From a plasmid, in sequence record NZ_CP064874.1: a stretch of 64,000 nt of DNA; one strand, 5' to 3'. A model generated the notes under the pieces. The model had not been told where the DNA came from. It saw only the letters and a list, made by a program, of their open reading frames with translations, and did not search any database. Shown in pieces: positions 4,388 to 42,864 of the stretch. A program made the position numbers and the translations under genes. How positions within the stretch are numbered: position 1 is the first letter of the stretch; every line of letters starts with the position of its first letter.

Positions 4388-4390
4388 GGG

Positions 4391-7714: not shown

Positions 7715-7730
7715 GATGCCTCCTTGGGGG

Positions 7731-8747: not shown

Positions 8748-8766
8748 GCGATCTCCCGAGCTACGG

Positions 8767-9378
8767 TCAGCAGCTCTCCCCCAGACTGATCAGGTTGTAA
8801 ACCAGCCAGGTCTCGCTCTCGCTGTCGTAGACGACCTGGTAGTCGAAGGTGCTGCGAGCTTCGGGGCGCATGGCCTCCGACCCGTCGCTAGCCCAGACCT
8901 TGTACTCGCTCGCGTCCTGGCAGGCATTGATCGTGACAAGACCGTTCTCGATGCCTTCCCACTCCTGCCCGTAGGAAGCAACCGTTTCGTACTTGATCGC
9001 TCCCTCTGTGGTTGCGGGGCCTTCGACGTTCACCTGGTCGACGTTGAGAATCGGCCCCTCTGCGATGCCAGCTGCATCGTTGACAGCGACCTCGAGAGCT
9101 CGCCCGGTCGCCCACGCCTCAAGCGGCGCAGTATCGGTACCACCAGCTGCGTTGACCTCGCCCCGTGTGACGAAGTACTGGGTCAGCACGGTCTCCGCTG
9201 CGGTGATCGCCTCATCCTCGCTCGCCGGCGGCGGAACCTGTGCGTTGCTGGCGGTAGGCGTGGGGGTCGGGGTGTCTGTGGGGCTGGCGGTGGGGTTCTG
9301 GTTGCCGGTGCCCGTGCATGCGGTCAGCGTCAGTGCGGCGGCGATGATGCCGGCGATGGCGAGGCGCTTGATGCTCAT
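8767..9378 (-). CDS. Lipoprotein (lipobox LTAC), Thr/Pro-rich linker, function unknown.
   Basis: 'MSIKRLAIAGIIAAALTLTACTG' signal plus lipobox, then a PT-rich linker. Confidence 0.6.
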   Translation of the reverse strand: MSIKRLAIAGIIAAALTLTACTGTGNQNPTASPTDTPTPTPTASNAQVPPPASEDEAITAAETVLTQYFVTRGEVNAAGGTDTAPLEAWATGRALEVAVNDAAGIAEGPILNVDQVNVEGPATTEGAIKYETVASYGQEWEGIENGLVTINACQDASEYKVWASDGSEAMRPEARSTFDYQVVYDSESETWLVYNLISLGESC

Positions 9379-9388
9379 GGTGGGGCTC

Positions 9389-9799
9389 CTATTGGGTGAT
9401 CAGCTCTGCGGTGGCTGTGGCTTGGACGGGGAACGGCACGGGGAGGAAGGTTGCCGAGTAGTCGGTGTCGACGGTGACGGTGATGCGGTCGCCGCTGACG
9501 GCGACGCTTCCTCCGACGCCAGCGGCGGCGAGGTAGCCGTTGGCGGCGCTGACGGCTCGGTTGCTGTCGATCGCGGTGGTGCCGTCGATGATCGCTTGGC
9601 CGCTGACCGCGTTCGCTGCGGCTCGGGCGGCACTGGCTGCGGTGGTGTAGGCCTGCTGGTTGGCTTGCACCTTGCCGGCGCCGTCGACGACGAGTCCGAC
9701 GATCGCGAGGAACGCGACGGTCATGATGACGAAGTAGATCGTCGCGACGCCCTTGTCGTCACGGAACTTGGCTTGGAGCCTCTGGATCATGGTTTTCAT
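9389..9799 (-). CDS. TadE/TadG-like pseudopilin.
   Basis: N-terminal 'GVATIYFVIMTVAFLAIVGLVVDG' TadE-type hydrophobic segment; position after flp and tadE. Confidence 0.6.
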   Translation of the reverse strand: MKTMIQRLQAKFRDDKGVATIYFVIMTVAFLAIVGLVVDGAGKVQANQQAYTTAASAARAAANAVSGQAIIDGTTAIDSNRAVSAANGYLAAAGVGGSVAVSGDRITVTVDTDYSATFLPVPFPVQATATAELITQ

Positions 9800-10257
9800 C
9801 GCCGCTCCCTGTAGGCGTCGACCGGAGAAGCAGCGGTGCCTGTGAGGTCGCGGGTGCCGGGGAGGCCGATCATGGCGGCGTCGCTGAGTGCGACGGTGCA
9901 GGAGACGGTCGCACTGACTCGGCCGGTGGTCCCGATCGGGGCGCTCAGGCCAGAGGCGTCGATGTTGACGGAGAGGGTGGTGCAGTTGACGCCGGACTGT
10001 TCCATCGAGATCCGCGCCATGTCTTCGGCGGCTTCCTGCGCCTCGGCTGTGGTGCGCGCGAGCGAGGCTTCGCGAGCTGCGGCTGACGCTGCGGACTCGA
10101 CGGCATTGCCGGCCAGAGCGAGACGTCCGGAAGCTGCGAGCAGCACGAGCACGGCGGCGAGGGCCGGGGCGAGGATGGCGATCTCGAGGCCGGCGGAGCC
10201 GCGGTCGTCGCGGAGCTTGGCAATGAGGGTGCGGATGGTGCGCATCAGTTGACCCAC
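9796..10257 (-). CDS. tadE: TadE-like pseudopilin.
   Basis: 'RGSAGLEIAILAPALAAVLVLLAASGRLA' TadE N-terminal motif. Confidence 0.6.
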   Translation of the reverse strand: MGQLMRTIRTLIAKLRDDRGSAGLEIAILAPALAAVLVLLAASGRLALAGNAVESAASAAAREASLARTTAEAQEAAEDMARISMEQSGVNCTTLSVNIDASGLSAPIGTTGRVSATVSCTVALSDAAMIGLPGTRDLTGTAASPVDAYRERR

Positions 10258-10658
10258 CTTTCAGTGGGGCCGGTCACGGTGACGTCGATGTTGGTGGTCA
10301 GTCCGGGGACGAAGGAGGGGGCGTTGCCGGTGACGGTCACTGTCACGGTGTTGGCGCCGCGGTCGACCGCGACGGACGCGCCGCTGATCGGTGAGCCGGA
10401 CTGGTTCAGGACAGCGAGGCCGGCGGTGGAGCCGTCTGTTCCGCTGGCGTTGTAGGCGCGGGCGGCGTTGTAGGCGCTGGTGGCGGCGGCGTGGGCGAGG
10501 TTGTTGGCGTGAAGGATGATGCCCAGGTGCAGGAAGACCGCGAGGACGAGCAGCAGTACCGGGGCGATGATCGTGTTCTGCAGCGTGGCCGCACCCCGAT
10601 CACCGGCGAGCGCTTCTCTGAGGCGCTGCCGGTGACCGGGGTTGGTGGTGCGGACCAT
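10245..10658 (-). CDS. tadE: TadE-like pseudopilin.
   Basis: 'RGAATLQNTIIAPVLLLVLAVFLHLGIIL' TadE N-terminal motif. Confidence 0.6.
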   Translation of the reverse strand: MVRTTNPGHRQRLREALAGDRGAATLQNTIIAPVLLLVLAVFLHLGIILHANNLAHAAATSAYNAARAYNASGTDGSTAGLAVLNQSGSPISGASVAVDRGANTVTVTVTGNAPSFVPGLTTNIDVTVTGPTERWVN

Positions 10659-10673
10659 CTGCGGGTGGCTCTT

Positions 10674-10868
10674 TCAGCCGGTGGGGATCTGACCGGCGTA
10701 GGCGTTGATCGCGGTGACGATGATCGCCACGACGGCCACCGCGGCGAGCGCGATCCCGGCGGTCCAGATGACCTGCTCGAGGGTGATGGAGCCACGTTCG
10801 GGCTCTTCGGTGAAGCGAGCTGCCCGCCCGCGCATGCGGGACAGGAACTCTCGGCTCAGGGTCGACAT
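10674..10868 (-). CDS. flp: Flp/Fap-family type IVb pilin precursor.
   Basis: 64 aa. Charged leader, then 'ERG/SITLEQVIWTAGIALAAVAVVAIIV' (G/XXXXE processing motif plus hydrophobic helix). First gene after the promoter motif. Confidence 0.65.
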   Translation of the reverse strand: MSTLSREFLSRMRGRAARFTEEPERGSITLEQVIWTAGIALAAVAVVAIIVTAINAYAGQIPTG

Positions 10869-10917: not shown

Positions 10918-10954
10918 GGTATAGGCCCCGGTTTGGAGCCTTCGCGGACATCGG
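10918..10954 (-). promoter_or_regulatory. Copy 2 of the conserved 37-bp bipartite motif, oriented leftward toward flp.
   Basis: On the minus strand: CCGATGTCCGCGAAG-N13-GCCTATACCT, about 50 bp upstream of the flp ATG. Confidence 0.5.
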
Positions 10955-17289: not shown

Positions 17290-17870
17290 CGGTCGCGCCA
17301 GTCGAGCGCGCGGTGTGCGGATGTGTGGCGCGGGTATGGGGCAACTGTGGCGGGTTCATGGGCGCCAGTATAGCGTCACATTCACGCCTATATGCAACAA
17401 CAATCGCGCGTGTCTGGCGCGACACATGCGCTAGAGCATGTGGAGCTACGGCGCTAGAACTGTGCGATGAACGCGCTCTGTCGGTGCAAGAACAACGCAA
17501 GCAGAGCGCTTGACAGTGCGCATCATCTAAAACAAGACCCGCGCCATAGTGGCTACATACGGGCACAAGCAATGCGCAAGTAAGGGGCCGTACAGGCGAC
17601 AGCCGGGCGCTCGTAATGCGCACGTTAGAGCGCAACAGCATGCGCGGGTAGGGCGATGTAATAGCGCGAATATTGCAGTTGATATTGCGGATGGCTGGCG
17701 CGGGTATGGCGCGGGGGTTGCTCAGCGTATCGCGCAAGTGATGCGGTGATCTGGCGGGGGAGTGGCGGAGGCTATCGCGGTGTTGCTGCGAGGGTACAGC
17801 GCAGAGCATGGCGGCGGGGTGGCGCGTGTGTAGCGCGGCGCTGGCGATGGTGGGGTGCGCGGTGTCGCGA
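17290..17870. repeat. Repeat-dense non-coding region upstream of parA. More than 25 GCGC-core boxes at ~11–12-bp phasing with AT-richer spacers; candidate partition centromere or iteron origin.
   Basis: TGCGCA palindromic core at least 3 times exactly (17572, 17627, 17517) plus many ATGCGC/AGCGC variants. The 13-mer GGCGCGGGTATGG occurs exactly twice (17328, 17697). No credible ORF across 17259-18114. Confidence 0.5.
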
Positions 17871-18114
17871 GGGCTGGTCATGGAGTCGTGGTGGGGCATC
17901 CAAACGATGGATGCGGGCGTAGACGGGCCTGTGCGGCCTGCTGAGGCGATTTCGGCCATGAGGAGGGCTCCGAGTGAGGCGGAGGGGAAGACAGGGCCCC
18001 TGGGGGCCATCCAGAGGCCCTGTCTGTCTGGGGGGGCGGAGCGGGAGTGTTGCTCCGGCCTGTGGGGAGCGCTCGACTCGTCGACTGCGCTTGCCCCCTG
18101 GATGGCGGGTTGGC

Positions 18115-18879
18115 TCAGCTGCGGCGCGGGGCGTAGGAGACCTTGGCCTCCATGTCGCCGCTGACGGCCTGCATGAGCTTGGTGCGGATTCGGCACACTC
18201 GGCGGTTGAGCGTCTCCCGGCTGACGCCGAGCTCGACAGCTGCTTCCTCACGCGCCACACCGGGATCACCCTCCGCGAGCTCGATGCGAGCAAGCAGCTG
18301 GACCTCGTCGCGGCGGAGGGTGCCGGAGTCGATCGCCCAGGTGAGGATCGTCACCAGATCCCGGAAGACGTCATCGCTCTCGTCGGGGCCTGCGATCTTC
18401 TCGAGCAGCTCGTCTTCGACCGGCATTGCGTCGACGCTGTGCTCGCTGCCGAACCAGACTCCGAGGTTCTTGATCGTCTCGAGGCGGATGTTTCCGGAGA
18501 CGGAGTGGACCCGCTCGAGCGGGTAGGTGTGAATGACCTCCCAGAGCACGCCGATCGTCGCGGTACGGGCGTCGGCGGGGGAGTGCTGCCACAGGCTGCG
18601 CATGCTGCTGCAGCTGCTCGGCAGCCGCAGCGCGAGCGGCATGAACGACTTGAGCAGGACGCGGCCGGCGATGGTATCGCCGGCGTGCTCGAGGGTGAGC
18701 AGCTCGAGCAGGAGCGCGTCGCGCTGTTCGGGAGCTTGCGGCTGCCGGATGAGGTTCACGGCCTCATCGCCAGTCAGCTCGCCGAGCGTTCCGAAGTGGT
18801 GAGTGGTGTGGGAGTGGAAGCTGTTCCACTCATCGAACAGCTGGTCGGCAAGAGGTGATGTCTTCGCCCAAGCAGTCAT
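18115..18879 (-). CDS. Regulator with a sigma-70 region-4-like C-terminal HTH. Possible divergent ECF-like sigma factor or activator.
   Basis: C-terminal 'AREEAAVELGVSRETLNRRVCRIRTKLMQAV' resembles sigma region 4.2. The N-terminal 200 aa have no clear sigma region-2 motif. Confidence 0.45.
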   Translation of the reverse strand: MTAWAKTSPLADQLFDEWNSFHSHTTHHFGTLGELTGDEAVNLIRQPQAPEQRDALLLELLTLEHAGDTIAGRVLLKSFMPLALRLPSSCSSMRSLWQHSPADARTATIGVLWEVIHTYPLERVHSVSGNIRLETIKNLGVWFGSEHSVDAMPVEDELLEKIAGPDESDDVFRDLVTILTWAIDSGTLRRDEVQLLARIELAEGDPGVAREEAAVELGVSRETLNRRVCRIRTKLMQAVSGDMEAKVSYAPRRS

Positions 18880-19102
18880 GAGAAATGGCCCTTCGTCGTG
18901 ACGTCGGTTGACGAAGGGCCACGTTCCTCAGCACCCCTGGTTCAGATCCTGGAAAGTTCCGGCCGGGCAGGAGAGCGCCCGATCGGCGGATGCTGGCTTC
19001 GGTGGATCTGAGTTGCGATCCGATGCTGTAAATACCTGTTCAGGGGCGGTTTCCATGCCTCGCTGCATGGGCGCAATATCCACGCAAGATTTCTTCGATC
19101 CG

Positions 19103-19139
19103 CGATGTCCGCGAAGGGCCGAAAACCCGGCCTATACAG
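19103..19139 (+). promoter_or_regulatory. Copy 3 of the conserved 37-bp bipartite motif, oriented rightward toward the conjugation operon.
   Basis: CGATGTCCGCGAAG-N13-GCCTATACAG, about 50 bp upstream of GTG 19192. Confidence 0.5.
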
Positions 19140-19191
19140 ATATGCCCCCGTTGGTCGGGAGGCATCAGGACTCCGCGGAAGGGACAGAAAC

Positions 19192-19428
19192 GTGAGCGAG
19201 AGCAGCACCGCAGACAGCGCCGACGACGCCATGTGGGAAGGATTCAAGCCCGACGCTGCACGCGCGATCCGTGCGCGCCAGGGGTTCGAGGAAGCAGTGG
19301 CGAGCACTCTCGACGCACCCTTCGACCCCTCCACGCATGGTCGCGTGGTGAAGGCGGTTGAGGAGCTTTCGGCAGCGGTGCCGGCAGCTCTGCGGGTGGC
19401 GCAGCTGCGAGTGGGAGGAGCTGCATAA
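19192..19428 (+). CDS. Small acidic hypothetical protein (~78 aa), first gene of the conjugation operon.
   Basis: GTG start preceded by 'GGAAGGGA' SD; the stop overlaps the next ATG (TAATG). Confidence 0.35.
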   Translation: MSESSTADSADDAMWEGFKPDAARAIRARQGFEEAVASTLDAPFDPSTHGRVVKAVEELSAAVPAALRVAQLRVGGAA

Positions 19429-20417
19429 TGGCGCGTCGTGAGAAGACGTCGAAGCCGGCCAAGGAGACGAAGACCGTCCCGGCACAGGGGAGCAGCTGGA
19501 CCCATGGTCGGCAGCTGGGCGGCAAGCTGCTGTCCGCGCTTCTGTTCGCCGCGATCGCGTGTGGGCCTATCGCGCTCTTCGCCGCGGCCGCACGTCCGGC
19601 GCCCGTCGTCGCCGCAGCGCCCGAGGCGCAGGCAGCGGGACTGAGCACGCAGCAGCAGGCTGCCGGCGGTTACGCGGAGGGCTTCGTCTCCTCGTGGCTG
19701 AGCGCGACGAAGGACGCACCGGGCGACCTGGCTACCTACGTCGACCTGGCGGCGCTGCGGCAGCTGTCGGTCACGGCCTGGGAGTACCGCGACCTGTCCG
19801 TGGTCTCCATCACGCCCGTCGACGGCTCGGACTTCGTCAACGTCGTCGTCGCGGCGAACATCAAGGAGCTGTCGGTGACGGACTCCGACGACACCAGCAC
19901 GACGAGCTGGCCGCGCCGCTACTTCCAGGTGGCGATCGCGGTCAACGGGGACACGGTGAGGGCAGTCGGTCTCCCGGCCCAGATCTCCGCTCCCGTCCAG
20001 GGCGAGACAACGTCGCTGGTCTACAAGCAGACCATCGGATCCTCTGACCCGTCCGCGGAGACAGTGTCGGCGTTCCTCGGCGCGTACCTTGCCGGCTCGG
20101 GTGACCTGTCCCGATACAGCGCCCCGGACACATCTTTCGTGGCGATCTCGCCCGCCCCCTACGTGATGGTCAACGTCGAGGAGATGCGGTCAGACCTGAC
20201 GCCTACGGAGTCCCCGAGCGATGGCGACACCCTCAAGGTGCTCGCGACCGTCTCACTGCTGAGCCCGCTGGACCAGCAAGTGACCTCGACGTACACGCTC
20301 ACCCTCACCGCGCGTGCCTCCCGCTGGGAGGTCAGCGCCATTGATCTTGCACCGCAAGCGGTCTCCGACAAGGGATCGACAACCCCCACGCCGACACCGT
20401 CCGGTAACGGCAACTAA
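19428..20417 (+). CDS. Membrane-anchored conjugation protein (one N-terminal TM plus large extracytoplasmic domain); TcpC/VirB8-like candidate.
   Basis: 'LLSALLFAAIACGPIALFAAAA' TM helix, then a 280-aa soluble domain; sits next to virB4. Confidence 0.5.
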   Translation: MARREKTSKPAKETKTVPAQGSSWTHGRQLGGKLLSALLFAAIACGPIALFAAAARPAPVVAAAPEAQAAGLSTQQQAAGGYAEGFVSSWLSATKDAPGDLATYVDLAALRQLSVTAWEYRDLSVVSITPVDGSDFVNVVVAANIKELSVTDSDDTSTTSWPRRYFQVAIAVNGDTVRAVGLPAQISAPVQGETTSLVYKQTIGSSDPSAETVSAFLGAYLAGSGDLSRYSAPDTSFVAISPAPYVMVNVEEMRSDLTPTESPSDGDTLKVLATVSLLSPLDQQVTSTYTLTLTARASRWEVSAIDLAPQAVSDKGSTTPTPTPSGNGN

Positions 20418-20433
20418 GGAAGGAACACCAACC

Positions 20434-20757
20434 ATGTTCGATTGGATCAACGGGATCACCGCTGATGCGACGACTGCTTTCCGGGCGGTCGTGTTTCTCG
20501 CAGCAGCAGTGATCTTCTTCGTCGTCGCCGCCAAGGTGCGGTTCGCCATGGCGACGACCATCATCACCGGCATCGCGTGCGGCCTGGCCATGTTCCTCGC
20601 CGCCGGCGGTGGCGAGTGGGTCATGGGCCTCATCCAGACCGAGACCGTCGACGCCATCGGAGTCACGATCCATCAGATCGCAGCTCCGGCGGACGCCCTG
20701 GTGCTCAACGAGACCACCACCGCGGCCGGCGACACGGTCTACCGGCTGGTCGCGTAA
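20434..20757 (+). CDS. Small membrane protein, two to three TM helices (VirB3/ConD-like position).
   Basis: ATG 20434 with 'AAGGAAGGAAC' SD. The track ORF 20314..20757 is over-extended. Confidence 0.5.
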   Translation: MFDWINGITADATTAFRAVVFLAAAVIFFVVAAKVRFAMATTIITGIACGLAMFLAAGGGEWVMGLIQTETVDAIGVTIHQIAAPADALVLNETTTAAGDTVYRLVA

Positions 20758-20940
20758 AGGGGCGAACGTGGCCGATCGCGACGAAGAGAGAGAGGTTGCG
20801 CGCTTCTACACGCGCAGCCGCCGGTTCCCAAAGTTCATCGGCCGTCTCCACGACGGCACGAAGATCCCCGGGGCCCCTACACGCTGACGCAGGGCGTCGT
20901 CCTGGCGATCGTCCTGGTCGTCGCCCTGCTGACGCAGAGC

Positions 20941-21342
20941 GTGTGGGGGACTGGCTCTCCGATCGTCGATATCCCCGTCGCTGCCTTCGTGTCCTGGGGA
21001 GCAGCGTGGGGAGCCGGAAGGATCCCGGCCACACGCCGGAACCTGCTGAGCATCATCACCAGCGGCCTGTCCGCGATGACCCGCCCCGCAGCCGGCCGCT
21101 ACCGCGGAGTGACCATGCGGGTTCGCCCGCCCCACTTCGCAGGCGGCGGAACAACGATCGCCGAGCCGGTCGGAGCCACGCTCACCACCCCGGATAGCGA
21201 GACCACCGCACCCGCACCGGAAGCGCCCGTCGTGGCGCAGCCGGTCCTGCAGCCGCGCTCGACGCCGCTGCCGGCGCACGCACCCGCACACGCGGTCAGC
21301 GGCGTCGAGCGCCTGCTGCAGCAAGCCCGAGGAGGCAACTGA
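20941..21342 (+). CDS. Hypothetical protein (GTG start) with a hydrophobic N-terminus. Gene structure of 20760-21345 is unresolved.
   Basis: A short frame-2 ORF (20768-20887) precedes it; there may be a frameshift or two small genes. Confidence 0.3.
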   Translation: MWGTGSPIVDIPVAAFVSWGAAWGAGRIPATRRNLLSIITSGLSAMTRPAAGRYRGVTMRVRPPHFAGGGTTIAEPVGATLTTPDSETTAPAPEAPVVAQPVLQPRSTPLPAHAPAHAVSGVERLLQQARGGN

Positions 21343-21344
21343 CC

Positions 21345-21560
21345 ATGAACAACACCGACATCCCGCTCGGCATCATCGGCCGAGGCCGCGGCTACGTCAT
21401 CAAGACCCTCGTGGTCAAGGCGGAGACCGCGCGTGGGCCGATCTGTGCGGACCCCGCTACCACGAGCTACGCAGCCCTCCTCCCCATCCTCGGCGGCACG
21501 CCGATCACGGCACCCCTCAGCGGCGGTCGCGATCTGCTGCTGGCCACGCCGACCGACTGA
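21345..21560 (+). CDS. Small hypothetical protein, 71 aa.
   Basis: ATG with 'GAGGAGG' SD; stop 14 bp before virB4. Confidence 0.45.
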   Translation: MNNTDIPLGIIGRGRGYVIKTLVVKAETARGPICADPATTSYAALLPILGGTPITAPLSGGRDLLLATPTD

Positions 21561-21574
21561 GAAACGAGACGACG

Positions 21575-24097
21575 ATGCAGATTCCGGCAACAGCGATGAC
21601 GAGCAACCTGATGTGGACCCGCTCGGGCGTGGTCTGGGCTACGTGGCGGCTGCAGCCGCTCCCGTATGCCTACGCCACCACGGCGGCAAAGCAGCTCGTC
21701 AAGGCGCACCACCAGGCGCTCTTCCAGGCGCACCGGGGCGAGGGACTGCTGCTGGGGCTGTGCGCTGACCTGGATCCGGTGTCTGTCGTGGAGCGGATGC
21801 TGGACGGTGTTCGCATCGACGAGTGTCCGGACTGGGCGCGCGAGGTCGAGCTGACCCTGGACGCGCTCGAGCAGATCCCGCTTGGAACGCGCGCGTTCTG
21901 GTTCTCGGTCCCGCTCGCGGCCGGTTCGATGAAGGCTCGCGCGAGGTCGGCAGTGCGCGCCGCCGACACCAAGCTGCGCGACACGTTGGCTCTTCCCCGT
22001 CAGCTGCCTACCGACTCCGAGATCGCTGCGGCCGCGCGGATGGCCAAGGAGATCGAGGTTCGCATCCCGGCCGCGTTCCAGCCGACCCGTGCAACGCCGG
22101 CCGAGCAGATCTGGATCGCCCTTCACTCGCAGCAGCGCGGCCTCTCCGCAGATCTCGCCGCCCCTGTCCCGCCCGCCGAGGGTACCGAGGACGGATTCGG
22201 CGTCGACGAGCTCGCGCACTTCCAGATGCCCTCCGCGATGCCGAACCCATGGCTCGACGAAGGCGGACAGAGCGACCTTCCCAAGGGGCAGCAGTTCCTC
22301 CCGTTCAAGCGCCGCTACCTCAAGGTGCACAGCCCCTACGCGGACGAGACGTCGTCCTACCAGGTGGTGCAGGCCATGGTCGCCGCACCCAAGGCCGGCT
22401 GGGTTTCGCCCGGCGTCGAGTGGATCTCACACGTCGACCAGTTCCCCCTTGACGTCGACTGGGGGATCCGTTTCACCGTCACCGGCGCCGACGAGGTCAA
22501 GCGTCGCAACAAGAAGGCCGAAACCGCCCTCGAGGAGCAGTACAAGCACCAGGAGGGCACCGCGACGATCACCGGCGGCGGATCCGACCTCGGAGAGATC
22601 GCGGAGACGCTGGCCGCCTACCACGCCTCCCTCAACCGCTCCGATAAGGAGGTCGAGGTTCAGGCGACGGTGCTGTTCGCTGTGGGGGCAGATACCGCCG
22701 ATCTCGCGAAGGCTAAGGGCCGGTTCGTGGCAGACGAGTACAAGCGCGCTGACTTCCTCCTCGAGGCTCCCCTGGGAGGTCAGGAGGAGCTTTGGTGGGC
22801 GATGATCCCCGGCACGCCCACCGGGCGCATCGTCCGTGAGCTCACCCAGATCACGACGGGCCGGGAGTTCGCGACCGGCGTTCCGCTTTCCAGCAACGAG
22901 CTCGGAGACGAGAAGGGCGCCCGCTTCGGCGAGAACATCAGCACCGCCCGGCACACCCCGATCCTCCGCGACGCGGACGGCAGTATCCAGGCCGACACCA
23001 GCGCCAGCTTCGGCGTGGTCGCCGAGCTCGGCGCCGGCAAGAGCGTGCTGCTCAAGGGAGACATGGGCGACACGGTCGACCGCAACGGCCGCGTCGTCGC
23101 GATCGACCGCACAGAGGCCAAGGAGTACGCGGTTTTCGCGCAGAGCCTCCGGCCGGACACCACGACGATCGTTGACCTGATGACCCCGGAGTACTCGCTG
23201 GACCCGCTGCGGGTGTTCGGCCCTCTCGTCGGCGCACGCATGGTGCAGTCGCTCTTCGCGGTGATGCTCGGCATCCGGGCCCGCGACTCCCGAGGCGTCG
23301 CCCTGTCCCGCCTCCTCGAGCCGGAGTACGTCGCCGCGCACGACATCACCAGCCTCGGTCGCCTGCGGGCGCACCTCAAGACGATCTCCTCGGCGGAGAG
23401 CGATGAGCTGTCGGGCCTGATCAACCTGGTCGCGTCGAAGGACATCGGCGAGGTTCTCTTCAATGACGGGCTGACCGCTGTCGACCTGAAATCGCGTGCC
23501 CTGGTCTTCCTCACCCATGGGCTGTCGCTGCCAGACAAGACCGAGCTCGAGCACGCGCACCTGTTCGAGGAGATGCCCCTGGAAAAGATCTACGGCCGCG
23601 CCATGTACGCGATGCTCATGGGGATCTCCCGCGAGGTCTGCTTCATGAACCCCGGCGAGCTCGCCGGCGCCTACTTCGACGAGTGCCACCACATCACCCA
23701 GTCACCGGAGGGAGAGCGCGACCTGCGCATCGGCATCCGCGACGGTCGCAAGCACCGCGCGTTCTTCGCCCTCGGCTCGCACGACCCCGCCGACTTCGGA
23801 GAAACCCAGACCCGAGGCCTGCTCAAGACCCGCTACGTGATGCGCCAGACCGACAAGGAGCTCGCTCGCCGCGCGATCGAGTGGCTGACCGGCGAGCCCG
23901 CGGACCCGGCGATGGTCCAGGTGGTCACCGAAGACCTGTCCCCGCTCGGGGCGGACGGAAAGGTCGCCCCGGAGCGGCGCGGCGAGGGACTGATCCGTGA
24001 CCAGCGCGGTCGAATCGGGAAGTTCCGCAAGACGCTGCCCGAGCGCCCCGACCGCCGCGAAGCCGTGCTGTCGACCCCGTCTCTGGTGACACCATGA
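21575..24097 (+). CDS. virB4: VirB4/TraE/ConE-family conjugative ATPase.
   Basis: 840 aa; Walker A 'ELGAGKSVLLKGDMGDT'; size and position typical. Confidence 0.85.
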   Translation: MQIPATAMTSNLMWTRSGVVWATWRLQPLPYAYATTAAKQLVKAHHQALFQAHRGEGLLLGLCADLDPVSVVERMLDGVRIDECPDWAREVELTLDALEQIPLGTRAFWFSVPLAAGSMKARARSAVRAADTKLRDTLALPRQLPTDSEIAAAARMAKEIEVRIPAAFQPTRATPAEQIWIALHSQQRGLSADLAAPVPPAEGTEDGFGVDELAHFQMPSAMPNPWLDEGGQSDLPKGQQFLPFKRRYLKVHSPYADETSSYQVVQAMVAAPKAGWVSPGVEWISHVDQFPLDVDWGIRFTVTGADEVKRRNKKAETALEEQYKHQEGTATITGGGSDLGEIAETLAAYHASLNRSDKEVEVQATVLFAVGADTADLAKAKGRFVADEYKRADFLLEAPLGGQEELWWAMIPGTPTGRIVRELTQITTGREFATGVPLSSNELGDEKGARFGENISTARHTPILRDADGSIQADTSASFGVVAELGAGKSVLLKGDMGDTVDRNGRVVAIDRTEAKEYAVFAQSLRPDTTTIVDLMTPEYSLDPLRVFGPLVGARMVQSLFAVMLGIRARDSRGVALSRLLEPEYVAAHDITSLGRLRAHLKTISSAESDELSGLINLVASKDIGEVLFNDGLTAVDLKSRALVFLTHGLSLPDKTELEHAHLFEEMPLEKIYGRAMYAMLMGISREVCFMNPGELAGAYFDECHHITQSPEGERDLRIGIRDGRKHRAFFALGSHDPADFGETQTRGLLKTRYVMRQTDKELARRAIEWLTGEPADPAMVQVVTEDLSPLGADGKVAPERRGEGLIRDQRGRIGKFRKTLPERPDRREAVLSTPSLVTP

Positions 24098-26124
24098 TCA
24101 CCTTCTACCGGCACACCTTCGAGACTCTGGGCGGCGCGTTCTGGCGGGTCCGTTTCTGGGCGCACGATCACCCGCGGTGGAGCAAGGTCATCGCCGTCGT
24201 CCTGATCGACCTGTTCCTGGTCCTGTTCGGCAACACGTACTGGGCCTTCGCCGCTGACGGCGGCGGCTCGTCCCCGTTCATGCTCGGCGGCGACATCACT
24301 GACAGCGACGGCGTCCCGCTGACCAACTACACGGTGCTTCCACTGGACCGCGGCGATGTGTTCACGATGGGGAAGTTCTTCATCTCCATGTGGATCGACC
24401 CGATCTGGACCGGGCATCTGGGTCTGGTGTCGTGGATGATCTGGTTCTGCAACTGGCTGCTCTCCTTCGAGTGGGTCGACATCGTCGCGGCACCGTTCGG
24501 CGCGCTGGCCGACCTCTTGCAGGACTTCCTCGGCGAGATCGCATGGATCCCGTTCGCGCTGACGATCGCCGGCGGTGTCGCGGGCCTGGCGATCATGCTC
24601 GGCCGGCACTCCACCGGGTGGGCGGAGTTGTTCATCTCTGCGTGCTGTGCGGTGCTGGCGACCGGTCTGCTCGCTAACCCGATCGCCTCGCTCACCGCCG
24701 CAGGCGGAGCATTCGACACCGCCCAGGAGTACGGCGGTCAGATCGCTGCCGTCGTCGTCACCGACGACATCAACAGCACGGAGCTCGACTCCGAGAACCT
24801 GCTGTCAGCTGCGGTCACGTCGCAGCTGGTCGACATCTTCGTGAAGATCCCTGCGCAGACGATCGCGTTCGGCCACGCCCTCGAGGGGCAGTGCGCCGCG
24901 ACGTTCACCGACACGATGACCAACTCGGCGCCCATCCAGACCGGCGGCAACGAGGTCCGTGACGCGGTCGGCGGGTGCGACGAGGCGGCGAAGACGTTCA
25001 ACCAGAATCCGAACTTCGGCCAGGTGCTCACGGCCGTCACGATGACCCCCGGAGCGCTCACCCTGTTCATCCTGCCGATGGCCTTCGGGGTGCTGTTCCT
25101 AGTCACGGTTCTCGGCTTCCTGATCTCCGCACTCAAGACCATGTGGAACGTCTACATCGGGATCCTCCCGGTCAACCGATACCCGCTGTGGAAGTCCCTC
25201 GCCGACACCTTCATGGGCCTGGTCGCCATCGTCTTCATGGCAGTCGTCATGGCGGCCGTCCTCAAGCTCACCGTCGCAGCGATCACCGGGCTCAGCAGCC
25301 TGGGAATCCCGCTCGTCGCGCAGATGACCTTTGCGACGCTGGTGATGATCGTGCTGCTGTTCCTCATCATCCGAGCGCGTCGCATTGCCAAGAAGACCGG
25401 CCGGTCGATCGCCGAGCAGCTCTCCAAGTACGGCATCGGCAAGGGCGCGCCGGCGCAGCGCGACGGGGTCAAGACCGTCGCGGCGATGAGCGCCGTATCC
25501 ACCGTCGCGGCCGCGGCGCTGCGTCGCCCTGACAACAAGGTCGACGCGCGCTCCATCAACTTCGGCGCGGGGGCTGCGCAGGACATCGGCACAATGACCG
25601 CTACACGCCCGCCCGCGGCTCCCAAGCCGCCCTCGACGCCCTCTGGCGGCTCACCGAGCCGTCCCGCCCTCCCGTCGCCTCAGATGGGCTCTGGGGGCGG
25701 CGCTGGCGCGGGTGCTGCCGCCAAGGCCTCGAAGACCGCGGACCTGGTCTTCACGGCCGCGCGGATCGGCAAGGGTGCCGCAGCGGGCGGTGTGGCCGGC
25801 GCCGCCGGCGCCGCGGCGCTCGAGGTCGGTGGCCGAGTCGCGAGCAAGGGAGCGTCGAAGGCTGTCTCCGCGGCCGCGGCAGGCGCGAGCAAGCCGCGAG
25901 CTGCGGGCGACCCGAAGGTGGTCTCGATGGTCGTCGACCAGGGCCCGGCGCCCACGCGCACCCCGGACGGTCCTCGACGGATCGTCGTCGACTCCTCGGG
26001 CATGGGACACATCGAACGGCGCCCCTCGTCAGGTGTCGTCGACATCTCGTCCCTGCCGGCGCGCGCGCCTCGCTCTCCGCGCAGCGGTGAGATGCGCGCC
26101 CGGCTCGCGATCGCACAGAAGTAA
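24094..26124 (+). CDS. Polytopic conjugation membrane protein (VirB6/TrbL/ConG-like) with Gly/Ala-rich low-complexity C-terminus.
   Basis: At least six TM segments; start overlaps the virB4 stop. Confidence 0.6.
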   Translation: MITFYRHTFETLGGAFWRVRFWAHDHPRWSKVIAVVLIDLFLVLFGNTYWAFAADGGGSSPFMLGGDITDSDGVPLTNYTVLPLDRGDVFTMGKFFISMWIDPIWTGHLGLVSWMIWFCNWLLSFEWVDIVAAPFGALADLLQDFLGEIAWIPFALTIAGGVAGLAIMLGRHSTGWAELFISACCAVLATGLLANPIASLTAAGGAFDTAQEYGGQIAAVVVTDDINSTELDSENLLSAAVTSQLVDIFVKIPAQTIAFGHALEGQCAATFTDTMTNSAPIQTGGNEVRDAVGGCDEAAKTFNQNPNFGQVLTAVTMTPGALTLFILPMAFGVLFLVTVLGFLISALKTMWNVYIGILPVNRYPLWKSLADTFMGLVAIVFMAVVMAAVLKLTVAAITGLSSLGIPLVAQMTFATLVMIVLLFLIIRARRIAKKTGRSIAEQLSKYGIGKGAPAQRDGVKTVAAMSAVSTVAAAALRRPDNKVDARSINFGAGAAQDIGTMTATRPPAAPKPPSTPSGGSPSRPALPSPQMGSGGGAGAGAAAKASKTADLVFTAARIGKGAAAGGVAGAAGAAALEVGGRVASKGASKAVSAAAAGASKPRAAGDPKVVSMVVDQGPAPTRTPDGPRRIVVDSSGMGHIERRPSSGVVDISSLPARAPRSPRSGEMRARLAIAQK

Positions 26125-26130
26125 CCCCGC

Positions 26131-27378
26131 ATGTCCGCATCGGGAGTACTCGAGCGCTCTGCCGACGTCGCCGGCGCCGTCAATGGGGGAGACGACGGGG
26201 ACGGTGGTGGTTCGCGCAAGGTCGTCCTCTGGGTGATCGCGCTCGTGCTGGTGCCGGTGGTGCTCTTCGCCGGCTACACGATGTTCCTGATGATGGCGAT
26301 CGCCGGCGCCTCCGGCGGTGGGTCGTCGCAGTGCACCGCGGGGTCGCTGACCACCGACAAGCTCGAGGTCCAGACCACAGGAGGATCGACCCGCACCCTC
26401 GGTGCGACGGAGCTCGGCCACGCGGCCACCATCCTCTCGGTCGCCCGCTCACTGGGCGTGTCCGCGCGGGGCCAGCAGATCGCGATCATGACCGCGCTGC
26501 AGGAGTCCGGCTTGAAGATGTACGCCAACTCCTCCGTGCCTGAGTCCCTCGATTACCCGCACGACGCGGTCGGCAGCGACCACGACTCCGTCAACTACTT
26601 CCAGCAGCGTGTGTCGGGCTGGGGCACCGTCGAGGAGCTCATGGACCCCCTCTACGCAGCCAAGGCGTTCTTCGGCGGCGAGGAGGGCCCCAACGGCGGA
26701 TCGCCGCGTGGGCTGCTCGACATCCCCGGCTGGGAGGACATGGGGCTGGGGGAGGCCGCGCAGACCGTGCAGGTCTCCGCATACCCGACCGCTTACGACA
26801 AGTGGGAGCCCGCAGCACAGCAGATCATCACCGCGGTCGGCGGGTCGATCAGCTGCGACAGCAGCACTGTCGTCGGGCAGGCCGCTTTCCCCCTTGCGGC
26901 CGGCTACCAGATGACCTCCGGCTACGGGCCGCGCGACATCACCGTTCCGGGTGCGTCGAGTTGGCATGTCGGAATCGACCTGCAGCGCTGGCCAAACCCG
27001 TGCGGCGACCCTGTCTACGCGGTCCTGCCGGGCACGGTGACTCTCAGCAGCTCACTGTGGTTGTCGATCAAGCACCCCGATGGGTTCGTGGTGTCCTACC
27101 TGCATATGTACAAGAGCGAGCGGCTCGTCGACGTCGGAGACACCGTCACCGCCGGCCAGCAGATCGGTGTCGTCGGGAACGTGCCGCCCAGTGGGGGATG
27201 CCACCTGCACCTGGCCGTCAACAAGAACGGGACGACGAATCAGGCCGTCGCCGGGCTGCAGGAGGCGACTGCACTCGGTGCCCCCTCGCAGTACGCCGGC
27301 TACGTGAACCCCGAAGAGTTCCTCCGCCTGTATGGCATCGAGATCTGTCCCACAGACGGCACTTGCCGACGCCTCTGA
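26131..27378 (+). CDS. Conjugation-associated cell-wall hydrolase (N-terminal TM, lysozyme-like region, C-terminal M23 peptidase).
   Basis: M23 motifs 'WHVGIDL' and 'GGCHLHLAVNKNG'; CwlT-like position after the VirB6-like gene. Confidence 0.8.
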   Translation: MSASGVLERSADVAGAVNGGDDGDGGGSRKVVLWVIALVLVPVVLFAGYTMFLMMAIAGASGGGSSQCTAGSLTTDKLEVQTTGGSTRTLGATELGHAATILSVARSLGVSARGQQIAIMTALQESGLKMYANSSVPESLDYPHDAVGSDHDSVNYFQQRVSGWGTVEELMDPLYAAKAFFGGEEGPNGGSPRGLLDIPGWEDMGLGEAAQTVQVSAYPTAYDKWEPAAQQIITAVGGSISCDSSTVVGQAAFPLAAGYQMTSGYGPRDITVPGASSWHVGIDLQRWPNPCGDPVYAVLPGTVTLSSSLWLSIKHPDGFVVSYLHMYKSERLVDVGDTVTAGQQIGVVGNVPPSGGCHLHLAVNKNGTTNQAVAGLQEATALGAPSQYAGYVNPEEFLRLYGIEICPTDGTCRRL

Positions 27379-27504
27379 CCCCCCTGGAAAACCGAGTCAA
27401 CTCGCGGCATGTAACCCTCCTGACGGCCTGGAAACCGGCCTGTAGGCTGGGGGCAGCCCCGGCCCGAAACGGGGCCGAAGCCTCTCCCACCCAGACGGTG
27501 ACTC

Positions 27505-28098
27505 GTGCCCTCAACAGATGTCAACGCCGCTGGTGACACCGACCGACCCGCCGGGTCAGTGTCGGCCACCGGCTACCGCTCGATCGCATACTTCCTGCCG
27601 GTCGCGCTGCATGCACGGCTCAAGGCTGCGTGGTGGTCGACGAGGGATGAGCCGGAGGGTGCGCCCGCGCTGGCCGGTCTCGTCGAGGTCGCCATCGGCC
27701 GCGAGACCAACCGCCTCGAGCAGCTCTACAACGCCGGCTCCCCTTTCCCTCCTGCCCCCGACCGTGCCCAGGGTGTGAACCCAAGAGGAGCCGCGGGATA
27801 CCGCCATCAGACCTACTACCTGCCGGTCGCGCTGCACGCGCGCCTCAAGGCTGCGTGGTGGTCGACGAGGGATGAGCCGGAGGGTGCGCCCGCGCTGGCC
27901 GGTCTCGTCGAGGTCGCCTTCATGCGGGAAGCCGACCGCCTTGAGCAGCTCTACAACGAGGGTGCCCCGTTCCCGCCGGCGCCGGCCAAGGCGCGAGGGA
28001 TCAGCCGCGCTGCAGCACAACGACAGGGCGAATGGCTGCGAGGCGAGTGGGAGCGCCGGCGACAGGCGCAGACCCCGCCGACCGACTCCAACGACTGA
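27505..28098 (+). CDS. Protein with two tandem ribbon-helix-helix units in one chain (single-chain RHH pseudodimer).
   Basis: Two 75-aa units: 'YFLPVALHARLKAAWWSTRDEPEGAPALAGLVEVAIGRETNRLEQLYN' and 'YYLPVALHARLKAAWWSTRDEPEGAPALAGLVEVAFMREADRLEQLYN'. Confidence 0.6.
   Translation: MPSTDVNAAGDTDRPAGSVSATGYRSIAYFLPVALHARLKAAWWSTRDEPEGAPALAGLVEVAIGRETNRLEQLYNAGSPFPPAPDRAQGVNPRGAAGYRHQTYYLPVALHARLKAAWWSTRDEPEGAPALAGLVEVAFMREADRLEQLYNEGAPFPPAPAKARGISRAAAQRQGEWLRGEWERRRQAQTPPTDSND
27571..28020 (+). repeat. 225-bp tandem duplication inside the RHH gene, with a 75-bp 100% identical core (27619-27693 and 27844-27918).
   Basis: Direct nucleotide comparison. Period 225 bp, in-frame. Confidence 0.85.
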
Positions 28099-28432: not shown

Positions 28433-28469
28433 CGATGTCCGCGAAGGAGCAGATCTCCGGCCTATACCT
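28433..28469 (+). promoter_or_regulatory. Copy 4 of the conserved 37-bp bipartite motif, upstream of the coupling-protein gene.
   Basis: CGATGTCCGCGAAG-N13-GCCTATACCT, 44 bp upstream of ATG 28513 (SD 'CAGGAGG'). Confidence 0.5.
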
Positions 28470-28512: not shown

Positions 28513-30624
28513 ATGGCAACGACAACTCGTGTGGCATCTCGTCCGCCGGCGCGCCCACCTGCACCGGCGACGGTGGCTCTGGGTGTTCTTCCTCGGCGTC
28601 AGCTGACCGGGATCATCCCGGCGCTGCTGTGCATCGCACTGGCGACCGCCGCCACCGGGTTGAACGCGGTGCGCCCGTTCACCGATCTGATCCCGCTGGT
28701 GTGGGTCGTGGCCGTGTTGCTCGCCGCCGGCGCGGTCGCATCCGGCGTGCGGACCTTCCAACGGGAAGGGCGGATGGACCCGGCGATCGAGGCGGTCCTT
28801 CCGATGCTCGGTGCGGCACAGCCAACCCGTGCTCTCGTCGTGCCGGTGAAGTGGACTCGTGGATGGGTGGGCCTCCCGGAGCGCATCAAGATCCGGTACG
28901 CCTCGCACGTCGATGACACCGACCCCCGCTTCGTCGACCAGATCCTCGCAGGCCTTGCACGCAGGCTTGGTGCCGAGTACCGGGTACGCAAGCACAACTC
29001 GAGGCGGTGCGTGCTCGTCGTCGAGCTCGCACCCGTGAGTGATCCGGTCTCCCGTGAGCAGCAGCGCGCGATCGAGGTCGTCAAGCTGGTCATCGACCCG
29101 ACCGCGAGCGTCTCGGTGAAGAGTGCCGATGACGGCTCGGTCTCGAAGATCGACGTCAAGCACAACGTGGGACCGAAGATGGCGATCGCGGCGCGGCGCT
29201 CCCAGGTCGAGAAGGTGGTCTCCTCGATGCTCCCTGGCCGGTGGCGTGCGCACTGGGATCTCGAGGGCGACAAGATCACGTTCGAGGTCCGACCGACGAT
29301 GCCCGACATGGTCCTGCACGAAGTGGAGCCCGCGGCCGCACTCACCCACGCCGCCTACAAGGCGTTCAAGATCCCGATCGGTCCTGACGAAGACGGTCAG
29401 ATCCAGTCGTGGCATCCGGCGGTCTCCCCGCATTGCCTCGTCATCGGTGGAACCGGATCGGGAAAGACCAGCTTCCAGCACACGGTGCTCACCCATCTCG
29501 CGCACGCTCACTGGCGGGTGTGGGTACTCGATGGGAAGCGGATCGAGTTCGCCGGATTCCGGGACTGGCCCAACGTCGAGCTCGTCGGCGCGCGGGTGGA
29601 GCACCAGGTGCGGATGCTGCACGCTGCGCACGAGCTCATGGAGGAGCGGTACTCGCAGCTCGAGAACGGCACGGCCCGGCTCGAGGACTTCGACCCCCTC
29701 GCGTTGATCATCGACGAGTACGCGACGTTCAAGGCGCGCGTGCAGCGCTGGTACAAGACGGTGAAGCCGAAGGGTGCGCCGGCGCAGGCCCCCGTTCTCG
29801 ATCTGCTCTCCGATCTCGCGCGACTGGCACGGTCGGCGAAGATCCACATCCTGCTCGGTCTGCAGCGCCCCGACGTCGAGTTCCTCGGCGGTGAGATGCG
29901 AGACAACTTCGGCGCCCGCGTCAGCTTCGGTCGTCTCTCCCCGCAGGGCGCCAACATGATGTGGGACAGCTTCGCGGTCGGTGTCGCGATCCCTCGCAAC
30001 AAGCGTGGCCGCGGTGTCACTCTGAACGCCGAATCTCAGCCCGTCGAGATTCAGGCGTTCTACACCCCCGACCCCGCCAAGCTCGACTCCACCGACAAGG
30101 CGGACTGGGATCACCTGGCGGCGCTGCGTCCCGACGCTGCCGACTACGAGCGGATGATGGTGCGCGACCCGGAAGCGGAGCTCACCGACGACGGCGAGGG
30201 GGAGGAGCTCGAGCCCGACTACTTCCAGTGGTCCTCGGCCGAGATTGTCGCTTGGGATGCATCGGTACCGTCGACGACCAAGCACGACGCGCTTCGACCC
30301 TCCAATGTCACCCCACTGGACTCTCGTGAACGGGTCCGGTTCGTGCCCGAAGTCGACGACGATGCACCGGACGTCGACGCGGCCGCTGACGGCGACGGAT
30401 ACGGCGAATCCCTCGAGGGCCCCGCGGTGGAGCTCGAGGTCGGAGATCTCCTGCTCGTCGACGCGACTCTGGGGCTGTGGGGAGTGGTCGAAGGAGTGGA
30501 GCCCGACGTCGTCGACGACGAGTACCTCGCGATCGAATACCGCGACCTCGACAGCGGTGAGGACGGGCTGCTGACGCTCTTCGACAACTCGGTGATCAGC
30601 TACCGCCGACCCGAAGCAGCCTGA
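28513..30624 (+). CDS. FtsK/SpoIIIE-family type IV coupling protein (TcpA/ConQ-like), two N-terminal TM helices.
   Basis: Walker A 'LVIGGTGSGKTS'; 703 aa; acidic C-terminal tail. Confidence 0.85.
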   Translation: MATTTRVASRPPARPPAPATVALGVLPRRQLTGIIPALLCIALATAATGLNAVRPFTDLIPLVWVVAVLLAAGAVASGVRTFQREGRMDPAIEAVLPMLGAAQPTRALVVPVKWTRGWVGLPERIKIRYASHVDDTDPRFVDQILAGLARRLGAEYRVRKHNSRRCVLVVELAPVSDPVSREQQRAIEVVKLVIDPTASVSVKSADDGSVSKIDVKHNVGPKMAIAARRSQVEKVVSSMLPGRWRAHWDLEGDKITFEVRPTMPDMVLHEVEPAAALTHAAYKAFKIPIGPDEDGQIQSWHPAVSPHCLVIGGTGSGKTSFQHTVLTHLAHAHWRVWVLDGKRIEFAGFRDWPNVELVGARVEHQVRMLHAAHELMEERYSQLENGTARLEDFDPLALIIDEYATFKARVQRWYKTVKPKGAPAQAPVLDLLSDLARLARSAKIHILLGLQRPDVEFLGGEMRDNFGARVSFGRLSPQGANMMWDSFAVGVAIPRNKRGRGVTLNAESQPVEIQAFYTPDPAKLDSTDKADWDHLAALRPDAADYERMMVRDPEAELTDDGEGEELEPDYFQWSSAEIVAWDASVPSTTKHDALRPSNVTPLDSRERVRFVPEVDDDAPDVDAAADGDGYGESLEGPAVELEVGDLLLVDATLGLWGVVEGVEPDVVDDEYLAIEYRDLDSGEDGLLTLFDNSVISYRRPEAA

Positions 30625-30673
30625 TCGTCGTGGCCGTCATGATGCTGCGGGCCTACCGGCCCCGAGAGAAGGG

Positions 30674-30961
30674 ATGAATCGCGTGTCGAACCAGAGCGTG
30701 TCGGAAGACGACTGGATCTCGCTGCTGCTGATCGCCGTGCTCGTCCTGGCCAGTGGCGCAGTGTCGCTGGGGATGTTCCTCGATCCGCTGCGCGCGTGGA
30801 TGTTGAAGTACCACTTGCTCGAGCAGGGTGAAACCGTGGCGATCCCCGTCGTCGACGGCGTCGGCCTCGGCTGGGGACAGATCCTCGTCATCCTCGCGAT
30901 CCTGATCGGTGCGATCGCGCTCATCGTGTGGCTCAAGCGCCGCGCGGCTGCCCGTGTCTGA
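30674..30961 (+). CDS. Small membrane protein (2 TM).
   Basis: 95 aa with two hydrophobic helices. Confidence 0.45.
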   Translation: MNRVSNQSVSEDDWISLLLIAVLVLASGAVSLGMFLDPLRAWMLKYHLLEQGETVAIPVVDGVGLGWGQILVILAILIGAIALIVWLKRRAAARV

Positions 30962-31012
30962 GCTGCCCGCCATGCTCAGCAAACGAGACCCAGGAAGGAG
31001 GAGAGATCACCC

Positions 31013-31273: not shown

Positions 31274-31282
31274 TTGACGACA

Positions 31283-31318
31283 GAGGCCCCACCGGCAGCT
31301 CTTCGCCGGTGGGGCCTC
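31283..31318. terminator. Bidirectional intrinsic-terminator hairpin between convergent genes.
   Basis: Perfect 14-bp stem GAGGCCCCACCGGC / GCCGGTGGGGCCTC with an 8-nt loop, between the nrdH stop and the 31343 (-) gene stop. Confidence 0.55.
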
Positions 31319-31342
31319 TGCTCTGCTCATCGGAGCGGGACA

Positions 31343-31576: not shown

Positions 31577-31583
31577 CGGACGC

Positions 31584-35150: not shown

Positions 35151-35163
35151 CAAGCTGTCCGAG

Positions 35164-42858: not shown

Positions 42859-42864
42859 CGACCG

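Follow-up and report, generated by a model that had tools for sequence, protein, structure and literature searches.

What reads a two-box motif that recurs in front of separate operons on a single plasmid? The question is raised by a 64,000-nucleotide (nt) stretch of the Microbacterium plasmid NZ_CP064874.1, hereafter the window, in which a first-pass annotation had noticed four copies of a bipartite motif, each pointing into a major operon, and had likened them to either an alternative-sigma promoter or a dimeric activator site. Comparative and structure-prediction evidence supports the first option: the copies are probably promoters of a plasmid-encoded sigma factor of 254 amino acids (aa) that resembles the extracytoplasmic function (ECF) group, as judged from sequence patterns and a predicted fold. 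That they are cis-regulatory sites of some plasmid transfer regulon can be said with greater confidence than this assignment to a particular reader.

The two-box motif and the genes behind it

The pattern CGATGTCCGCGAAG-N13-GCCTATAC matches the window exactly four times, each with 0 mismatches, and a search allowing up to three mismatches found no further copy there. None of 100 dinucleotide-preserving shuffles held a match (chance expectation 0), and a relaxed core, TGTCCG-N19-CCTA with 1 mismatch allowed, returned the same four window sites only. The motif can also be written as CGATGTCCGCGAAG-N12-GGCCTATAC, again with four window occurrences. When the copies are aligned with 100-nt flanks, identity is limited to two blocks, and the first base of the supposed 13-bp variable spacer is an invariant G in all copies; the motif is therefore best described as box A, (CGA)TGTCCGCGAAG, followed by 12 free positions and box B, GGCCTATAC. 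The two exact boxes of the first-pass annotation thus stand, its spacer shortens to N12, and the 37-nt spans it had assigned to the copies prove to be 1-2 nt too long. The corrected copies are the following.

347-381, minus strand: copy 1, exact match; promoter-like, before a small gene of ribbon-helix-helix (RHH)-like type
10919-10953, minus strand: copy 2, exact match; internal promoter-like, between tadC and the flp pilin gene
19103-19137, plus strand: copy 3, exact match; promoter-like, before the operon for a type IV secretion system (T4SS, the mating channel), divergent from the sigma gene
28433-28467, plus strand: copy 4, exact match; promoter-like, before the coupling-protein operon

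Each of the four lies between genes and has the orientation of the gene downstream, pointing as described into the RHH, flp, T4SS and coupling-protein genes. The distance from the last motif C to the start codon is 82 nt for copy 1 (ATG at 264), 50 nt for copy 2 (flp ATG at 10868, opening a Flp-like open reading frame (ORF) of 64 aa), 54 nt for copy 3 (GTG at 19192) and 45 nt for copy 4 (ATG at 28513), so the range of 45-75 bp given earlier holds for copies 2-4 and copy 1 lies slightly outside it. The window has a G+C content of 66%, and its transfer region is 93% identical to plasmid pYJNG of Microbacterium sp. YJN-G and ~80% identical to plasmid B of Microbacterium sp. No. 7. The gene layout was taken from the annotation of these relatives and from Pfam scans, and places the following units behind copies 1 to 4, respectively.

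1-264, minus strand: RHH-like gene downstream of copy 1, running off the window edge (three-frame translation compared with pYJNG)
3776-10868, minus strand: flp operon, with the Flp pilin, TadE/TadG-like minor pilins, two unknown genes, a 1107-aa LysM protein and a prepilin peptidase (ORFs and the pYJNG RefSeq annotation)
19192-28098, plus strand: T4SS operon, with a 78-aa protein, a TcpC-like protein, small proteins, a VirB4-like AAA_10 ATPase, a 676-aa protein, an M23 peptidase and a CB_ParB_C protein (Pfam and the pYJNG annotation)
28513-31600, plus strand: coupling-protein operon, with a 703-aa protein of the FtsK/SpoIIIE family, small proteins and an NrdH-like glutaredoxin (Pfam; 3' end provisional)

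From this layout, the four copies precede the channel, the coupling protein, the pilin operon and a DNA-processing unit. The T4SS operon runs rightward and is of the Gram-positive type. The RHH-like gene is frameshifted in the window, where the C-run at 145-148 reads CCCC and that of pYJNG reads CCCCC (a 1-nt deletion), which reflects either a sequencing error or a pseudogene. The pYJNG gene is intact (L025:4267-4536, 90 aa) and the copy 1 site is present there too; the gene is followed by one for a 1673-aa primase-like protein of the CHC2-zinc-finger/Toprim type, with a Pfam match to Zn_ribbon_DnaG and a sub-threshold match to Toprim_3.

A search of related elements, already proposed with the first description of the motif, found 30 distinct sites in 13 related Microbacterium loci (plasmids and genome contigs), before the same genes. 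Across these sites TGTCCGCGAAG and GGCCTATA are near-invariant and the gap is always 12 nt, with a free sequence of low information that varies even between orthologous sites whose neighboring proteins are 50-93% identical. Sites orthologous to copy 3 in 8 relatives have invariant boxes and variable spacers, and the site orthologous to copy 2 is found in L001, L008-L015 and others. The proposed tie of the Tad pilus to the conjugation genes is maintained in the relatives. The motif lies 26-56 nt from the start codon in the relatives, compared with 45-82 nt in the window. On its sequence pattern, the motif is a textbook phylogenetic footprint, with two apparently protein-contacted boxes at a fixed distance.

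An exact-pattern scan of metagenome contigs returned 93 sites in 83 stretches. Correctly oriented sites located 15-153 nt before orthologues of regulon genes or of their operon partners account for 57 of the 93; the contexts encountered were FtsK-like (19), the 78-aa protein with TcpC (17), RHH (16, most with a primase-like gene after the RHH gene), Flp/TadE (4), LysM (2) and a gene following the prepilin peptidase (1). Two sites are too near a contig end for classification. The 34 others comprise 28 before small co-oriented plasmid ORFs of unknown function and 6 in other settings.

Some relatives carry five or six sites. The extra ones, which have no window counterpart, occur in L003 at ~30951(+) and ~35313(+), in L004 at ~34955(+) and ~35235(+), and in the metagenomic loci L061 and L077; they lie before a LysM gene, before genes past the prepilin peptidase, or as divergent pairs before small unknown ORFs, among which are a 256-aa protein with CxxC pairs and an 86-aa acidic protein.

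Promoter-like geometry and a candidate reader

What kind of site is this? A consensus scan of 18700-19300, around copy 3, found no sigma-70-type promoter, and the boxes do not form a housekeeping promoter with a TTGACA-like -35, a TANNNT -10 and a spacer of 16-18 bp. Box A is unlike TTGACA, and box B, as TATAC(C/A) or TATATG, is missing the -7 T retained by actinobacterial SigA -10 elements. The symmetry of a dimeric operator is also missing, because TGTCCGCGAAG repeats GGCCTATAC neither directly nor in reverse complement. Copies 3 and 4 do contain the direct repeat TCCGCGA-TG-TCCGCGA reported earlier; it decays in L011 and L012, whose sigma-like proteins are 83-85% identical to that of the window, and is therefore no conserved part of the element. 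This leaves the dimeric-activator option unsupported. The two boxes are asymmetric, the spacer between them is fixed in length and free in sequence, and the conserved bases extend over 31 bp in all, within the ~28-31 bp looked for in an alternative-sigma promoter. This span and asymmetry, in sites that are intergenic, co-oriented with a nearby gene and always face it, correspond to the geometry of a -35/-10 promoter, as expected for an alternative sigma factor.

Could the conserved unit instead be an RNA or single-stranded-DNA element, such as a 5' untranslated region (UTR) element, a processing site, a hairpin, or a recombination or transfer-origin site? Judged by eye, short stems are possible in all four window spacers, and over the 30 sites there is a slight excess of hairpin potential relative to spacer-shuffled controls (mean z -0.6). 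These stems are unconserved over the 30 sites and many spacers form no hairpin (for example GGAGAGAACGCA), so we rejected the spacer hairpin as the main feature. Conservation resides in two unpaired, non-complementary boxes, the Rfam covariance models gave no match at gathering score anywhere in the window, and 4-6 copies per plasmid, each before a different operon, are unlike an origin of transfer (oriT) or a recombination site. Such an element is scarcely credible here.

The promoter reading calls for a reader, and the first-pass annotation had named the product of 18115..18879 as the factor to try. The gene is located as follows.

18115-18879, minus strand: 254-aa divergent ECF-like sigma factor, candidate reader of the motif; annotated as 'hypothetical protein' in relatives

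The predicted structure of this protein contains a sigma-2 domain (regions 2.1-2.4) and a sigma-4 domain with the helix-turn-helix of region 4.2, joined by a disordered linker. An extra region of ~48 residues precedes them at the N-terminus, and the C-terminus reads ELGVSRETLNRRVCRIRTKL, which we take to be the region-4.2-like pattern of sigma factors. Curated sequence models do not detect the protein: it has no Pfam family at E<=0.01, it fails the NCBIfam sigma models, Sigma70_r2 of Pfam does not match it at all, and its narrow profile finds no match among PDB sequences; what these searches did return was weak and C-terminal. A bridge is provided by the wider family, which an exhaustive profile search extends to 834 clusters at 50% identity (E<=1e-3). 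Among 35 spread-out members, 8 match Sigma70_r4 (best 1.3e-8) and 4 match Sigma70_r4_2 (best 5e-7), and the profile built from these 35 has CnrH as its sole PDB match below E 0.01 (E 0.0033). This single match is weak and runs collinearly from region 2 to region 4, with profile positions 94-237 aligned to CnrH residues 38-183. We conclude, from predicted fold and profile bridge, that the 254-aa protein is probably a very divergent two-domain ECF-like sigma factor; because the curated sequence models failed, it is to be taken as sigma-like on those two grounds and not as a routinely annotated member of the family.

Plasmids from at least 7 genera of Micrococcales (Microbacterium, Curtobacterium, Clavibacter, Arthrobacter, Glutamicibacter, Xylanimonas and Cellulosimicrobium) have the sigma gene and the T4SS operon in divergent orientation. 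The window motif has no match in the more distant of these plasmids, which have their own two-box motifs at equivalent positions. These motifs were found by dyad counting and class-specific scans, since an automated repeat search was swamped by chance 16/20 matches in the GC-rich DNA. The closest two subclasses, Ia and Ib, are split by sigma identity: proteins 72-99% identical to that of the window go with ...GGCCTATACC (TATACC) at 6 of 6 metagenomic conjugation sites with a sigma gene upstream, and those 50-61% identical go with ...GGCCTATATGACGTAG (TATATGACGTAG, at identities of 52-61%) at 12 of 12. At 37-40% identity the boxes read TGTCCGATTCC...CCTATG, and the range of 29-40% as a whole goes with classes II-IV. 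The classes beyond that of the window are listed here.

Class Ib, No. 7 plasmid A and others: TGTCCGCGAA(G/C)-N12-GGCCTATATGACGTAG
Class II, No. 7 plasmid B, p1-HA-8 and others: (A/C)TGTCCGAT(T/C)C...CC(T/A)ATG
Class III, Curtobacterium pC1c (sigma 33-35% identical): TGTCCG-N19-CCTACTC
Class IV, M. sediminis and Clavibacter pCSL1 (sigma 29-36% identical): TTGTCGAC or TTGACCCAC, then N18 and CCCCTTGTAGGT
pAL1 motif, Arthrobacter pAL1 (L109), 2895-2925(+), 3492-3522(+), 8642-8672(-) and 19616-19646(-): CTGTCTAA-N16-CCCCTTG

The pAL1 motif has 4 matches compared with 0.9 expected, and its sites lie before the coupling-protein gene, near the start of the T4SS operon and before two small genes; the pAL1 RefSeq gene calls overlap at the start of the T4SS operon and may be wrong, which makes the distance from site to start codon uncertain. 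In all, six box classes track the sigma clades, and the predicted recognition-helix residues of sigma-4 differ between classes.

This co-variation bears directly on whether a chromosomally encoded alternative sigma factor of the host reads the sites, as the bipartite geometry would suit any alternative sigma factor. Microbacterium sp. No. 7 contains two plasmids of different classes, Ib on plasmid A (L003) and II on plasmid B (L002), each with its own sigma gene, and the compared regions of the two plasmids hold no cross-class sites. Likewise, contigs L013 and L023 of one metagenome-assembled genome differ in box class, each matching its own sigma clade. Two classes within one strain or one assembled genome favor a plasmid-encoded reader over a host sigma factor, the box classes track plasmid lineage across genera, and we consider a host factor very improbable. 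The coexistence of plasmids with different sigma clades and boxes suggests insulated transfer regulons.

A plasmid-encoded reader could also be a transcription factor other than the sigma-like protein, acting either as a repressor or, by recruiting host RNA polymerase, as an activator. The sigma-like protein would then have another role, and the candidates would be the RHH protein, the CB_ParB_C protein and the 78-aa protein encoded first in the T4SS operon. The sites are conserved, precede operons and are specific to the plasmid lineage, and the regulon encodes several small proteins of DNA-binding type. Moreover, co-variation with the sigma clade is at the same time co-variation with the whole plasmid lineage, for which reason any other lineage-specific DNA-binding protein could give the same pattern and this evidence alone cannot single out the sigma-like protein. 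However, the boxes differ from the operators of dimeric RHH or helix-turn-helix proteins in that they lack dyad or direct-repeat symmetry and face the gene in every case, and around copy 3 no host-type -35/-10 remains with which RNA polymerase could be recruited. In addition, the gene for the protein of predicted sigma fold sits immediately upstream of the site, in divergent orientation, in 17 of the 17 metagenomic contigs that bear the T4SS-operon copy. We therefore regard a different factor as unlikely, though less so than a host sigma factor, and retain the 254-aa protein, with its predicted sigma-70-family fold, as the probable reader.

Several further observations weigh against this assignment, as does the lineage-wide nature of the co-variation. 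The boxes are unlike GGAAC and CGTC, the usual ECF promoter consensus, and do not allow the exact -35/-10 register to be fixed; the slight hairpin excess of the spacers also finds no place in it. The structure model is of moderate quality (pLDDT 79, pTM 0.54), and the Foldseek E-values are weak (best 6e-3), though all top matches are sigma factors. The protein falls below the Pfam gathering scores for sigma domains, its best sub-threshold matches (E ~0.02) being Sigma70_ECF at 15.2 bits (cutoff 21.1) and r4_2 at 14.9 bits (cutoff 25.7). Lastly, the sigma-2 domain is drawn from structure prediction and from one weak collinear profile alignment with CnrH.

A proposed transfer switch and its known counterparts

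Based on the motif and its geometry, conservation and gene contexts, together with its co-variation with a protein of predicted sigma fold, we propose that RNA polymerase carrying the 254-aa sigma factor would start transcription at all four sites. Box A, TGTCCGCGAAG, would serve as a -35-like element contacted by the C-terminal helix-turn-helix of sigma-4, and box B, GGCCTATAC, as an extended -10-like element contacted by sigma-2. Transcripts would start a few bases past box B, leaving 5' UTRs of ~40-50 nt, or ~75 nt for copy 1. Once the sigma factor is made or released, four units would be turned on together: the T4SS channel operon, the operon of the FtsK-like coupling protein, the flp operon with its pilin, minor pilins, LysM protein and prepilin peptidase, and the DNA-processing unit comprising the RHH and primase-like genes. 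The result would be a self-contained transfer regulon that bypasses the housekeeping promoter code of the host. Binding to core RNA polymerase, binding to the boxes, the start sites and the way in which the sigma factor is itself controlled are the steps that we infer in this scheme. More tentatively, and with confidence somewhat short of even, we extend it to a large, unannotated family of mobile-element sigma factors (the 834 clusters) with mutually orthogonal sigma/promoter pairs. On each actinobacterial conjugative plasmid such a pair would govern a private regulon of T4SS, coupling-protein, Tad and DNA-processing genes, insulated from the host as well as from plasmids residing in the same cell, and the Tad pilus would be a co-regulated part of conjugation in these Gram-positives.

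How would the sigma gene itself be controlled? Neither the exact nor the relaxed scan of the window found a motif copy aimed into it, and no co-transcribed anti-sigma gene is evident beside it. Its leader is distinctive.

18880-18965, minus strand: leader or control region of the sigma gene, with near-invariant blocks in an alignment of 8 relatives (sigma identity 50-93%)

Among these 8 relatives, the 85-nt leader is better conserved than the sigma coding sequence. It contains an inverted repeat, GGCCCTTCGTC-N12-GACGAAGGGCC, extended by GAGGAA/UUUCUC pairing that places UUUCUC next to the ATG, and the RNA fold is computed at -42.3 kcal/mol (z -3.2). No. 7 plasmid B has a different hairpin at this position, followed by the conserved ACGTTCCTCAGC. 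Probably an input signal acts on this leader and so decides whether transfer begins; the leader would work as an operator or through an RNA structure masking the ribosome-binding site.

On the other side of the same intergenic region, a conserved block, CGCAATATCC(A/G)CGCAAGA(T/A)TTCTTCG, occupies 19063-19095 directly upstream of box A. It occurs at the T4SS-operon copy only, is retained in 7 of 8 relatives, and may be a second regulator site or a piece of the divergent sigma-gene promoter.

Among known systems, ECF (group 4) sigma factors such as CnrH of Cupriavidus (PDB 4cxf), SigW, SigK and SigE/AlgU are close in form. They share the sigma-2/linker/sigma-4 arrangement predicted here, to which the structural matches point, as well as an asymmetric two-box target whose spacer is fixed and which recurs before the genes of a small dedicated regulon. 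Unlike them, the 254-aa protein fails the Pfam and NCBIfam sigma models and has the ~48 extra N-terminal residues, its boxes are TGTCCGCGAAG and GGCCTATAC, a co-transcribed anti-sigma gene is not apparent, and no promoter of its own type precedes the sigma gene. Phage sigma factors such as T4 gp55 are comparable as a mobile element's own, highly divergent sigma with a promoter code that times a block of genes. T4 gp55 is a sigma-2-only factor requiring co-activators, whereas the window protein retains a predicted sigma-4 domain and a -35-like box.

Two regulators of mobile elements deserve comparison. Orf7 of Tn916 has been described as sigma-like, and SetCD of SXT/R391 is an activator that works with the RNA polymerase holoenzyme of the host, not a replacement sigma. 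Tn916 has element-encoded positive regulators (Orf7/Orf8) of a Gram-positive-type T4SS with the same set of TcpC, VirB4-like, FtsK-like and cell-wall-hydrolase proteins as in the window. In Tn916, one promoter, Porf7, reads across the joint of the circularized element into the transfer genes (PMC5812530), as opposed to at least 4 separate promoter copies before separate operons here. SetCD resembles the proposed switch in that one element-encoded factor acts through one repeated box before transfer operons, in a system that is, unlike ours, Gram-negative (PMC4344509). The plasmid-encoded sigma factor SigN (ZpdN) of Bacillus subtilis pBS32 (PMC6751061, PMC10601692) is likewise a plasmid-borne alternative sigma driving plasmid-specific genes, in a different phylum. 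What sets the present system apart is that the protein is invisible to standard sigma models, has its own boxes, is encoded divergently beside a Gram-positive-type T4SS and has a Tad pilin operon in its putative regulon.

A literature search found no description of this protein or promoter, and nothing relevant on a plasmid sigma factor or its promoter in Microbacteriaceae or Micrococcaceae. A 2025 study reports that related Micrococcus linear plasmids transfer by conjugation, with no mention of sigma factors, promoters or pili. Relatives of the window plasmid are typed as 'non-mobilizable', and control of conjugation in high-GC Gram-positives outside Streptomyces seems largely uncharted. If the proposal is correct, T4SS/Tad plasmids of Microbacteriaceae and Micrococcaceae, including those of the plant pathogens Clavibacter and Curtobacterium, gain a concrete switch gene with its promoter code, and the Tad pilus would be expressed within the transfer programme. 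The sigma gene and its boxes would also form a searchable signature for conjugative modules missed by current typing tools, and the natural, apparently orthogonal sigma/promoter pairs could be used as expression tools in Actinobacteria.

Other features of the window

The Tad locus runs leftward through parA and its partner, a SAF/CpaB-like gene, a CpaE-like gene, CpaF and two TadB/C genes to copy 2, from which flp and the following genes continue. Before the window Tad assembly genes (SAF/CpaB start at 15864) we found no motif copy, only out-of-register look-alikes, and here they probably come after parA. The SAF gene of M. sediminis and of Clavibacter does have a local box, which is the additional class IV site at the head of the Tad assembly genes.

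The gene that closes the T4SS operon (27505-28098) encodes a protein whose C-terminal domain is that of ParB, the centromere-binding protein of Leifsonia plasmid pCXC100 (Pfam CB_ParB_C, E 3.6e-10). In many metagenomic contigs a CB_ParB_C gene lies upstream of the putative coupling-protein promoter. Between parA and the sigma gene, a non-coding stretch of ~850 bp contains several TGGCGCGGGTATGG-like repeats in both orientations (17290-17850), possibly a centromere. Just past the stop codon of the sigma gene, at 17989-18025, a hairpin with 15-nt arms looks like its terminator.

Just upstream of copy 1, at 410-609, the 9-mer GGTGTACCA occurs in 6 exact copies and one with 1 mismatch, in both orientations; at up to one mismatch the window holds 18 matches compared with 5.8 expected. 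pYJNG has a variant (GGTGTCCCA / GGGACAC) in place of this array. The repeats resemble iterons, or an array bound by the RHH protein or by a replication or partition protein.

The interval 33411-52412 is a cargo and defense region with the following genes.

33411-34718: protein with an MmeI-like N-terminal/helicase-spacer region
36038-37492: amidase
38521-39840: ISL3 transposase
40288-41835: AIPR protein
42865-46302: Swt1-like HEPN and DUF499 protein
47809-48927: DUF1156 methyltransferase-like protein
48924-52412: ORF of 1162 aa

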